Origin: Eledone cirrhosa
Lineage: Eukaryota
Direction: 5' to 3'
Length of the DNA stretch: 64,000 nt
Assembly (NCBI GenBank): GCA_964016885.1
Contig: OZ024742.1
Location: 54,994,001 to 55,058,000, forward strand
Position numbers and translations under genes: made by a program. Within the stretch, counting starts at the first letter, position 1. Every line of letters begins with the position of its first letter. Of the stretch, positions 9,001 through 15,378 are shown piece by piece. Below the pieces are notes generated by a model. It ran no database searches. It was not told the DNA's origin and saw nothing but the letters and a program-made list of their open reading frames with translations.

Positions 9001-9668
9001 GTTTATCGTGAACTCGTGCGCCGATTTTTCGATACTCGATCTTTCTAATATATTTAGCTCTGGACATAGCTATCCACCAGTTAATTTTATTGCTCATTTT
9101 TTGTCGATTCTATTGAGTGATGAATAGCTTTTGTTTTATTTTAACATGTCTATTGAGCACTCTAATTCGATATGTGTATTTCCACATTCACTCGAATTGT
9201 TTTCGCGGATATAGGGGTCATCTCCCTTGTCTAATGCCATGTGCGTTTTTCACCGCTAGTTGACTCCTCTGCCGCCAGGAAAAAACTCGTTGATAACGTA
9301 AATTCCGTTCCACTTACTCTAGTAGGCTTTTATATTTATATGTGAGCTGATAGAGTACAGTCTAAGGATTTACAGAAACCCATGAAGCTAGATTTAACAC
9401 CTTTCTAGTGGGTCCGGGTATGATTTTACATTCATTTAAATTATTGACGTATTGTTTTATTGATATTTTTTATCTGTTTGGCCCGAATCTTCCTTTATCG
9501 ATTTTAAATCGTATGGTTGATTGTAGACTTGTTCTATATGTGACGGTATTTTAACGATAGTTATAGCTCTGATTCATCTGAATTATTGAGCCCTCTGCCG
9601 CTCATATCGAATTTCGTTTATCGTGAACTCGTGCGCCGATTTTTCGATACTCGATCTTTCTAATATAT
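1..9668 (+). repeat. Tandem array of a 615-bp hammerhead-containing unit (retrozyme-like), about 15.7 copies, open at the left window edge
   Basis: cttgtctaat recurs at 1, 616, 1231 ... 9226. Only two single-base variants noticed by eye (896, 3316). No ORF of 60 aa or more inside the unit. The array stops at unit position 443 (taatatat) and runs into (TA)n. Confidence 0.97.
60..194 (+). ncRNA. Type I hammerhead ribozyme, U3-A8 core variant with long stem II (repeated every 615 bp, 16 copies)
   Basis: Stem I ACUCG(60-64)/CGGGU(190-194). Core UUGAUAA 65-71. Stem II GUAAAUUC(73-80)/GGAUUUAC(141-148), inner UACUCUA/UAGAGUA. GAAA 150-153. Stem III ACCCA/UGGGU, inner CUAGA/UCUAG. Cleavage triplet GUC 187-189. 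Confidence 0.8.
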
Positions 9669-9850
9669 ATATATATATATATATATATATATATATATAT
9701 ATAGTGTATATATATATAGTGTATATATATATATATAGTGTATATATATATATATATATATATATATATATATATATATATATAGTGTATATATATATAT
9801 ATATATATATATATATAGTGTATATATATATATATATATATATATATATA
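9669..9850. repeat. (TA)n microsatellite with GTG interruptions, between the two arrays
   Basis: Direct reading. Confidence 0.97.
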
Positions 9851-11570
9851 TTGGAATAAATGCTCTGAAATAGCGATATATATGTGAATATAGACATAGA
9901 ATATTCGAGAATATTCTGTATGTTTATAATAAACATTTTGAAGACCTAATCGCTATAGAATAGAATACGTCACGTATTACAATTAGATTCTCGATAAAAG
10001 CAAGGGAAGTAATCTACGCGTTTCATTCTTGTTAGAAATCATCAGGACTACATATCCAGTGCTTTTATCGAGAATGACACAGCTAGAGACTTATAGAATA
10101 CTTAGCTGTGTACAGGAACTGGTTTGAAAGAGCGGTTGCCGGTCCGGCAGAAATTAGAAATTGGAATAAATGCTCTGAAATAGCGATATATATGTGAATA
10201 TAGACATAGAATATTCGAGAATATTCTGTATGTTTATAATAAACATTTTGAAGACCTAATCGCTATAGAATAGAATACGTCACGTATTACAATTAGATTC
10301 TCGATAAAAGCAAGGGAAGTAATCTACGCGTTTCATTCTTGTTAGAAATCATCAGGACTACATATCCAGTGCTTTTATCGAGAATGACACAGCTAGAGAC
10401 TTATAGAATACTTAGCTGTGTACAGGAACTGGTTTGAAAGAGCGGTTGCCGGTCCGGCAGAAATTAGAAATTGGAATAAATGCTCTGAAATAGCGATATA
10501 TATGTGAATATAGACATAGAATATTCGAGAATATTCTGTATGTTTATAATAAACATTTTGAAGACCTAATCGCTATAGAATAGAATACGTCACGTATTAC
10601 AATTAGATTCTCGATAAAAGCAAGGGAAGTAATCTACGCGTTTCATTCTTGTTAGAAATCATCAGGACTACATATCCAGTGCTTTTATCGAGAATGACAC
10701 AGCTAGAGACTTATAGAATACTTAGCTGTGTACAGGAACTGGTTTGAAAGAGCGGTTGCCGGTCCGGCAGAAATTAGAAATTGGAATAAATGCTCTGAAA
10801 TAGCGATATATATGTGAATATAGACATAGAATATTCGAGAATATTCTGTATGTTTATAATAAACATTTTGAAGACCTAATCGCTATAGAATAGAATACGT
10901 CACGTATTACAATTAGATTCTCGATAAAAGCAAGGGAAGTAATCTACGCGTTTCATTCTTGTTAGAAATCATCAGGACTACATATCCAGTGCTTTTATCG
11001 AGAATGACACAGCTAGAGACTTATAGAATACTTAGCTGTGTACAGGAACTGGTTTGAAAGAGCGGTTGCCGGTCCGGCAGAAATTAGAAATTGGAATAAA
11101 TGCTCTGAAATAGCGATATATATGTGAATATAGACATAGAATATTCGAGAATATTCTGTATGTTTATAATAAACATTTTGAAGACCTAATCGCTATAGAA
11201 TAGAATACGTCACGTATTACAATTAGATTCTCGATAAAAGCAAGGGAAGTAATCTACGCGTTTCATTCTTGTTAGAAATCATCAGGACTACATATCCAGT
11301 GCTTTTATCGAGAATGACACAGCTAGAGACTTATAGAATACTTAGCTGTGTACAGGAACTGGTTTGAAAGAGCGGTTGCCGGTCCGGCAGAAATTAGAAA
11401 TTGGAATAAATGCTCTGAAATAGCGATATATATGTGAATATAGACATAGAATATTCGAGAATATTCTGTATGTTTATAATAAACATTTTGAAGACCTAAT
11501 CGCTATAGAATAGAATACGTCACGTATTACAATTAGATTCTCGATAAAAGCAAGGGAAGTAATCTACGCG
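9851..11570 (-). repeat. 310-bp hammerhead-containing tandem array, left arm (about 5.5 copies, ribozyme on the minus strand)
   Basis: ttggaataaa at 9851, 10161, 10471, 10781, 11091, 11401. Reverse-complement HHR at 10009-10051 and every 310 bp. Confidence 0.97.
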
Positions 11571-14500: not shown

Positions 14501-15333
14501 CTCTAGCTGTGTCATTCTCGATAAAAGCACTGGATATGTAGTCCTGATGATTTCTAACAAGAATGAAACGCGTAGATTACTTCCCTTGCTTTTATCGAGA
14601 ATCTAATTGTAATACGTGACGTATTCTATTCTATAGCGATTAGGTCTTCAAAATGTTTATTATAAACATACAGAATATTCTCGAATATTCTATGTCTATA
14701 TTCACATATATATCGCTATTTCAGAGCATTTATTCCAATTTCTAATTTCTGCCGGACCGGCAACCGCTCTTTCAAACCAGTTCCTGTACACAGCTAAGTA
14801 TTCTATAAGTCTCTAGCTGTGTCATTCTCGATAAAAGCACTGGATATGTAGTCCTGATGATTTCTAACAAGAATGAAACGCGTAGATTACTTCCCTTGCT
14901 TTTATCGAGAATCTAATTGTAATACGTGACGTATTCTATTCTATAGCGATTAGGTCTTCAAAATGTTTATTATAAACATACAGAATATTCTCGAATATTC
15001 TATGTCTATATTCACATATATATCGCTATTTCAGAGCATTTATTCCAATTTCTAATTTCTGCCGGACCGGCAACCGCTCTTTCAAACCAGTTCCTGTACA
15101 CAGCTAAGTATTCTATAAGTCTCTAGCTGTGTCATTCTCGATAAAAGCACTGGATATGTAGTCCTGATGATTTCTAACAAGAATGAAACGCGTAGATTAC
15201 TTCCCTTGCTTTTATCGAGAATCTAATTGTAATACGTGACGTATTCTATTCTATAGCGATTAGGTCTTCAAAATGTTTATTATAAACATACAGAATATTC
15301 TCGAATATTCTATGTCTATATTCACATATATAT
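11582..15333 (+). repeat. 310-bp hammerhead-containing tandem array, inverted right arm (12.1 copies, ribozyme on the plus strand)
   Basis: Reverse complement of the left-arm unit. cgaatattctatg at 11582, 11892 ... 15302. Ends at ttcacatatatat and merges into (TA)n. Confidence 0.97.
11724..11812 (+). ncRNA. Type I hammerhead ribozyme with palindromic minimal stem III (17 complete copies across both arms)
   Basis: Stem I GUAGUC(11748-53)/GAUUAC(11785-90), extended by a perfect 16-bp AUUCUCGAUAAAAGCA/UGCUUUUAUCGAGAAU helix. Core CUGAUGA 11754-60. Stem II UUCU-aaca-AGAA. GAAA 11775-78. Stem III ACGCGU palindrome. Cleavage GUA after 11784. Confidence 0.9.
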
Positions 15334-15378
15334 ATATATATATATATATATATATATATATATATATATATTTATATA

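Follow-up and report, generated by a model that had tools for sequence, protein, structure and literature searches.

Two described systems that come close to the repeat arrays analyzed here are outlined first. Metazoan retrozymes of the non-LTR type (LTR, long terminal repeat) are non-coding tandem repeats of 150-450 bp with a GC content below 50%, a type I hammerhead ribozyme in every copy and co-occurring Penelope-like elements (PLEs) (Cervera and de la Pena 2020, PMC7229834; Li, Clavereau and Pollet 2026). The parts of these accounts compared do not mention inverted arms, tails, microsatellite targets or end phases. Endonuclease-bearing (EN+) PLEs of the Neptune, Hydra and Naiad groups combine a hammerhead with an inverted 5'-truncated arm, one tail, a bias for (TA)n and extension of both target strands (Craig et al. 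2021, PMC8557442; Frangieh et al. 2024, PMC11167929). In vitro, both strands are extended and two adjacent internal start sites define the tail (PMC11167929). Circles as templates for PLE copies longer than one unit were proposed in 2014 (PMC4209133). Retrozyme circles have also been proposed as templates for target-primed synthesis of tandem cDNA, probably aided by PLEs, and circular forms of related repeats are known from coral, mussel and axolotl (PMC7229834, PMC7761336). A 2026 preprint uses phylogeny to link retrozymes with PLE termini, prefers local expansion as the explanation and, in the part compared, calls the mechanism unresolved (10.64898/2026.07.22.740005). The compared parts of PMC6765202 and PMC8490949 hold nothing on insertion ends, and a literature search that left most subscription papers and supplements outside its reach returned no report on retrozyme arrays that describes tails, inverted arms, end phases or haplotype tests. 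Here we analyze a 64,000-nucleotide window of the Eledone cirrhosa genome (contig OZ024742.1, positions 54,994,001 to 55,058,000) that contains neighbouring arrays of a 615-bp and a 310-bp unit embedded in (TA)n. The 310-bp block very probably arose in one step by priming on both target strands by a PLE.

The contig measures 379 Mb within a 3.0-Gb genome. In window coordinates, the locus is laid out as follows.

1..9668, plus strand: array of the 615-bp unit in one orientation, 16.4 units in total, defined by its periodicity and with only two single-unit variants
9345..9420, plus strand: last copy of a conserved 615-unit RNA motif, invariant CAGAAACCC and GGGTCCGGGTA flanking a covarying hairpin; resembles half a hammerhead and lacks stem I
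9663..9668, plus strand: ATATAT run (unit 438-443), the fixed 3' end of the 615 family; putative priming site, predicted to be unpaired
9663..9851, no strand: (TA)n tract with GTG interruptions that separates the two insertions; putative target
9850..11570, minus strand: 310-bp insertion, left arm made of 5.55 identical units with the ribozyme strand on minus
9850..9875, minus strand: PLE-type tail, the 25 nt separating the two start sites plus a shared A, confined to this end
9995..10060, minus strand: first hammerhead copy of the left arm, a sub-threshold match to Rfam HH9
11560..11583, no strand: inversion junction, in which an 11-nt insert re-copies the neighbouring TAATCTACG and is followed by a short microhomology join
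11582..15333, plus strand: 310-bp insertion, right arm made of 12.1 identical units with the ribozyme strand on plus
11748..11790, plus strand: minimal type I hammerhead with stem I, CUGAUGA core at 11754, stem II, GAAA and a 2-bp palindromic stem III
15326..15333, plus strand: ATATATAT run at the tail-less end; putative site at which the second target strand pairs with the RNA
15326..15379, no strand: (TA)n tract at the right end; putative target

The two 310-bp arrays are a single insertion with two inward-facing arms, antisense and then sense to the hammerhead, that meet at an inversion junction at 11570-11582. This corrects an earlier note on this DNA, which spoke of an inverted 310 array. 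Its placement of the array ends proved accurate: the 615 periodicity ends at 9668 in the ATATAT run, which is the longest alternating run of that unit; the right 310-bp arm ends at 15333 in ATATATAT, the longest alternating run of the 310 unit; and 9850/9851 marks the beginning of the left arm. Its statement that copy numbers are non-integer also stands, the values being 5.55, 12.1 and 16.4 units. The junction at 9851, for which only 1 nt of homology was given there, shares 2 nt (AT) with the tract and is no exception, as it follows the rule for PLE tail ends. To the three array/(TA)n junctions recognized at the time a fourth has to be added, since the 615 array begins 407 bp before the window, at unit phase 209, where it also adjoins (TA)n with the opposite polarity. 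The 17.6 units of the 310 repeat in the window show no differences at all. The 615 and 310 units are unrelated in sequence to each other.

The 310 unit is non-coding, with no open reading frame (ORF) of at least 80 aa inside the arrays, is 310 bp long and has a GC content of about 35%, within the range given for retrozymes. A type I hammerhead fold is found in every unit, with cleavage predicted after 11784. The hammerhead core is invariant except at N7 and H17, and stem I is 100% paired across 10 haplotypes, with three one-sided changes and no two-sided ones. Rfam returns no match anywhere in the window at the gathering threshold, and scans by E-value add nothing beyond microsatellite noise and the weak HH9 match of the 310 unit. 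Its sequence features place the 310 array among the non-LTR retrozymes, and its insertion anatomy is of the PLE type. This anatomy, which the compared parts of the retrozyme accounts lack, is resolved here at over 1,000 junctions.

A single 14-mer from the 310 unit matches exactly at 18,642 places in the genome, sister families included. Exact junction patterns occur 1,041 times for tail ends, 1,245 times for tail-less ends and 747 times for the 615 3' end into (TA)n (with 1,423 read-through copies of the latter), whereas reversed controls give 0, confirming that such junctions exceed chance. We examined 62 stretches, of which eight held only sister families below 90% identity and ten had been picked for paired ends; loci picked by their junctions were excluded from the end-phase counts. 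In 38 of the remaining 44 loci, picked regardless of their ends, an antisense and a sense arm are combined with one tail end and one tail-less end. Five more are one-armed, one lies only partly within its stretch and none has two like ends. Every two-armed 310 insertion carries the extra 25-nt tail at one end and stops in the AT run at the other. Pairing of ends was assessed for 81 tail and 100 tail-less junctions among the matches listed in the first 218 Mb of contig C1, within a distance of 20 kb. All 54 inward pairs are mixed (30 with the tail on the left, 24 on the right; P = 6e-17). The tail at one end and the inverted 5'-truncated arm of PLEs are thus seen in 54/54 pairs as well as in the 38 loci. 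Another 73 listed junctions are left unpaired, probably because exact patterns miss variants.

The two ends differ in how they meet the target. About 30 of 41 tail ends lie at unit phase 310/1 and the others spread over phases 303 to 9. They share 0-2 nt with the target, and those at loci L099 and L040 have no target homology at all, a fixed start that parallels PLE synthesis in vitro (PMC11167929). At tail-less ends, the (TA)n tract often runs beyond the unit's G, and at L099, L104 and L062 target-specific letters substitute unit letters within the AT run. Both features fit an annealed primer, although later slippage can mimic the tract overrun. The start at this end coincides with a target-complementary run, unlike the start sites described in the compared part of the in vitro study (PMC11167929). 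Compared with EN+ PLEs as described in those sources, the 310 element also lacks an ORF, has up to dozens of units per arm, carries a tail of 25 nt instead of 30-40 and pairs one tail strictly with one tail-less end. Across other arrays, the junctions at (TA)n follow rules that hold family-wide. The arbitrary phase proposed in the earlier note applies to inner break points and 5' ends, which are random, and not to the other ends, whose phases are fixed per family.

The genome contains two young autonomous PLE families, one Hydra-like with a 745-aa ORF (~43,000 candidates) and one Neptune-like with a 1,294-aa ORF (~19,600), clade labels that come from comparing motifs with the relevant part of PMC8557442 rather than from a tree. 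Both include many open, near-identical copies, so that the (TA)n bias of the 310 unit is accompanied by young PLEs. All ten inverted Neptune-like insertions have a tail of ~60 nt at one end and stop at an internal ATAT at the other. This rule was scored on Neptune-like copies; in ten Hydra-like inverted copies most ends lie beyond the compared stretches. Together with the inverted arm, single tail and (TA)n bias described for PLEs (PMC8557442), the Neptune-like tail rule indicates that the 310 family works like a PLE. Neither the 310 nor the 615 unit is similar to the Hydra-like or Neptune-like termini or to a neighbouring reverse transcriptase fragment, and Pfam recognized none of five PLE fragments tried. 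Repeats within five Neptune-like insertions differ by 0-1 substitutions in four cases and by 3-4 substitutions plus gaps in L143.

In the autonomous inverted insertions L142, L134, L135, L143 and L146, one or both arms are longer than a full unit and overrun the upstream hammerhead cut by 15 to ~900 nt. Run-off at the ribozyme cut was rejected for these arms, as the overrun varies in length.

Haplotypes of the 310 unit suggest that each array was copied from one template in many rounds. Among 26 arrays with at least three full units (231 units), 17 haplotypes are found. Unit differences amount to 0.19 within an array and haplotype differences to 5.1 between arrays, and within-array deviations comprise 27 singletons versus five multi-unit calls, three of which are one indel alignment ambiguity. 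Both arms carry the same haplotype in 19 of 20 loci, against an expectation of 0.047 for two random loci. In 30 two-armed arrays with 126 paired positions, none of 36 one-arm variants is mirrored in the opposite arm (L036 was dropped, its anchor having matched a palindrome on the wrong strand). Insertions span 0.7-48 units and fit a gamma distribution of shape 2.08, corresponding to two exponential arms (Kolmogorov-Smirnov p 0.91 for shape 2 and 0.02 for a single exponential). Mean arm lengths are 4.5 units on the tail side and 4.2 on the tail-less side and are weakly correlated. Arm ends are uniform in phase, and 0 of 70 lie within 3 nt of the ribozyme cut where 1.6 are expected, which is weak evidence alone; run-off at the cut was rejected for 310 arms in view of this missing pile-up. 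Of ten long arrays, seven contain singletons only. Copying of a linear array can neither lengthen arrays nor fix new variants in all units, so that a monomer bottleneck followed by amplification is needed. Rolling-circle synthesis would be its simplest form, and the data favour repeated copying of a single monomer, likely a circle. Looped contigs of 340 nt in runs X2, X5 and X6 are expected from any tandem repeat and are uninformative on circles.

Further hammerhead-bearing or 310-related families with units of ~470 and ~500 bp occur at L097:4070-4270, L062:5930-6120, L109:1780-2520, L105:3770-4390, L089 and L095; inverted arms and tails are frequent among them. At unit phase 59, an imperfect palindrome shows recurrent within-array reversion (L035, L038, L040 and L041), perhaps through quasi-palindrome correction. 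Inversion junctions recur at internal inverted repeats of the 310 unit, at phases ~225/152 and ~62/144 (L038, L049, L098, L108, L057 and L060), consistent with two cDNAs annealing via RNA stem sequences.

Synthesis of multi-unit arrays in one step, targeted to and primed by (TA)n, is well supported, and a monomeric circular template is likely for the 310 family. The best overall explanation, which we hold to be probable with considerable room for doubt, is a two-armed 310 insertion made by a PLE from a small, likely circular RNA, with the 615 family formed alike on one strand only. Transcripts of units that all carry the hammerhead fold would be cut and ligated into monomer circles. The endonuclease of a PLE such as the young families found here would then nick both strands of the (TA)n that lies at the array ends. 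On one strand, the protein would set the start without pairing and leave the tail, while the other strand would pair with the AUAUAUAU run 25 nt upstream and give the tail-less end. Both polymerases would circle the same template until they drop off, in keeping with arms that are monomorphic, on average equal, memoryless and blind to the cut. The two cDNAs would finally anneal and repair would fill in the gaps, in keeping with the short homologies and small inserts at which the arms are seen to join. LINE-1 (long interspersed nuclear element-1) twin priming likewise yields antisense-then-sense copies, with the second primer at an internal complementary site and a microhomology join. There, each arm is copied from its own part of a linear poly(A) RNA, without overlap, whereas the 310 arms start 25 nt apart in the unit and contain many units each.

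This scheme retains parts of the earlier note. Satellite formation in one step at (TA)n is well supported by the tail pairing and the monomorphic arrays, and the circular template survives as the best reading, its circularity being deduced indirectly. Priming by (TA)n annealed to an AU run applies to one 310 end and probably to the 615 family, and fails for the tail end, where no homology is needed. Polarity antisense to the ribozyme strand holds for the 310 family; the hammerhead that had been attributed to the 615 unit falls away, and polarity there follows from the pattern of one fixed and one variable end. The idea of a single process behind both arrays gives way to two-ended priming for 310 and one-ended priming for 615.

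The 615 family is organized differently. Similarity scoring covered 36 loci; among the 28 taken from these, 27 stop at the AT run and one stops at a second run at phase 340. A second, inward arm is present in one of the 28 (L066), so that the inverted arm and tail of PLEs do not characterize this family, and inspection by eye of the first 100 listed 615 3' junctions revealed no inward pair at a spacing of up to 20 kb. The 5' ends are uniform in phase (Rayleigh p 0.71) and adjoin (TA)n at 33 of 48 loci, and arrays of up to 26.6 units share no common 5' start. A fixed 3' end with variable 5' truncation is the pattern of a target-primed retroposon. Single-ended priming of short and long interspersed nuclear elements (SINEs and LINEs) shares the fixed 3' end, random 5' truncation, short 5' microhomology and occasional long duplication. 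In contrast, the 615 start site lies within a circularly permuted unit, up to 26 units are seamless and no shared LINE 3' end was found. A full-length linear master was rejected, as long arrays differ in 5' phase and show no length cap. Thirteen arrays (81 units) contain six haplotypes, seven singletons and no multi-unit variants, and it is the short copies that are more diverged. In a sister family with 2,758 candidates, 12 of 12 loci stop at this fixed end, where AT homology amounts to just ~3 nt, which indicates that position is as important as pairing. Among 29 loci searched for target-site duplications, L071 is clear and L076 doubtful, and (TA)n flanks would hide any at the rest. The 615 family looks like the product of single-ended target priming on a circularly permuted template, separate from the 310 family.

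The 615 unit differs from metazoan retrozymes in lacking a type I hammerhead: its stem I is unable to form, and three sister families vary in CTGATAGA. Its conserved motif, with the flanking segments invariant and the hairpin covarying across sisters, has no Rfam match at E<=10 and failed a by-eye fit to the twister, pistol, hairpin and hepatitis delta virus (HDV)-like layouts. A metagenome scan gave four matches, and the one inspected resembled chance. The motif is a candidate new ribozyme variant. Variants shared by five units in L177 and L184/L157/L185 (C1) lie near the late-made end and are G>T and A>T on the RNA strand. They could reflect local conversion or, following the A-rule for misreading of damaged bases, one damaged template base repeatedly misread, which would be a rolling-circle signature.

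Several observations weigh against copying of a circle by a PLE. The 310 hammerhead matches HH9 at 19.2 bits, below gathering, stem II carries a U-U pair at its base in most haplotypes, one of the ten long 310 arrays has two doublets, and BLAST detects no similarity between the 310 unit and the two autonomous PLE families retrieved. The same two-strand priming by a PLE could also have used a linear uncleaved multimer, or RNA longer than one unit re-entered by template jumps, an account that we judge unlikely but the most serious of the alternatives. In vitro the main PLE substrate was uncleaved linear RNA, and start sites were not target-homologous (PMC11167929). L191 reads B,B,A from both ends, for which a pure monomer circle is insufficient and an ordered linear template or a joint template switch is required; in L143 the upstream repeat is unlike the terminal ones. 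The lack of ends at the ribozyme cut is compatible with a linear template as well. Copying of an array can neither lengthen nor homogenize it, yet 17 near-monomorphic haplotypes occur in 26 arrays, none of the 36 single variants is mirrored and there is no length cap or common 5' end, although re-entry on one short RNA could accommodate these counter-points. Short PLE-type insertions might instead have expanded in place by unequal crossover or slippage, the model put forward for vertebrate retrozymes (bioRxiv 10.64898/2026.07.22.740005). The longest 310 array (46 full units) has repeated variant blocks with a 27-unit echo, pointing to later expansion or a mosaic template, and in two of five longer 615 arrays a single variant recurs in five non-adjacent units, clustered within the array. 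We nevertheless find this route improbable: deviations are nearly all singletons (27 versus 5 in 231 units, 7 versus 0 in 81), the window's 17.6 units are identical, spans fit two exponential arms, the diverged 615 copies are short, and both inverted arms would have to grow yet remain identical.

For the 615 family, rolling-circle transposition of DNA (Helitron-like, or through extrachromosomal DNA circles) would replace reverse transcription, and we give it little credence. Its appeal lies in the missing canonical ribozyme, one fixed and one variable end, the lack of any partner retroelement found and a fixed end of CTAA then T that resembles Helitron 3' ends, which read CTRR. A CTRR end is, however, not conserved across families: the three sisters end at a homologous place in different letters. 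The duplication of ~75 bp at L071 speaks against Helitrons, which are not known to make target duplications; as it encloses the 615 3' (TA)n, it also counts against the tract being purely target, and some (TA)n may have been added in synthesis. In addition, the invariant motif and covarying hairpin suggest selection on RNA, and L066 takes the inward two-arm form. An assembly or sequencing artefact, such as fold-back chimeras at repeats, is very improbable for the insertion structure, even though inverted repeats beside long (TA)n are difficult to assemble. Fold-backs mirror an end with its flank, whereas here a fixed 25-nt end difference and unlike flanks recur in 54/54 pairs, and loose ends that run into (TA)n appear at 11923 (seven contigs), 11951 and 11956 in contigs of public run X1, which possibly stems from the sample used for the assembly itself.

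The locus is a nest of (TA)n-targeted insertions. Window positions 15380-17140 hold a broken, 5'-truncated LINE fragment (Pfam RVT_1), which we take to be RTE-like from its motifs, ending in (GAT)n within the same (TA)n field. Just upstream of the window, L050:7800-9335 contains a second two-armed 310 insertion, of a different haplotype, plus a short inverted element that belongs to another hammerhead family and likewise has a tail end and a tail-less end. Elsewhere in the window, an old, diverged relative of the 310 unit lies at 53991-54310, where short stretches match at 73-79%, and at 51814-53400 (ACAT)n tracts flank a tandem duplication of 341 bp together with another repeat in a longer copy.

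The spread of hammerhead satellites, the purpose that the PLE hammerhead serves and the reason why PLEs bear tails and inverted ends are open questions on which these data bear. Circular templates have been proposed since 2014, and we found no insertion-level evidence for them in the literature. This genome supplies exact start sites, a strict pairing rule, a haplotype test, intact candidate enzymes and more than 1,000 young junctions per 310 end type, which make the hypothesis open to direct tests in vitro and in populations. Our junction-level evidence would lend genomic support to a proposed one-step route of satellite DNA birth. More tentatively, and with the odds somewhat against it, the arrays may be fossil rolling-circle products: a Penelope dimer would prime both strands of a (TA)n break, two polymerases would chase each other round one RNA circle, and arrays of up to 15 kb would be born fully formed and monomorphic. 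The same route would explain tandem, inverted and tailed autonomous PLEs, and the 615 family would be a second circular-RNA retroelement with a self-cleaving motif and single-ended priming. If true, dispersed homogeneous satellites would arise without concerted evolution, and PLE proteins would be processive rolling-circle writers of multi-kilobase DNA.

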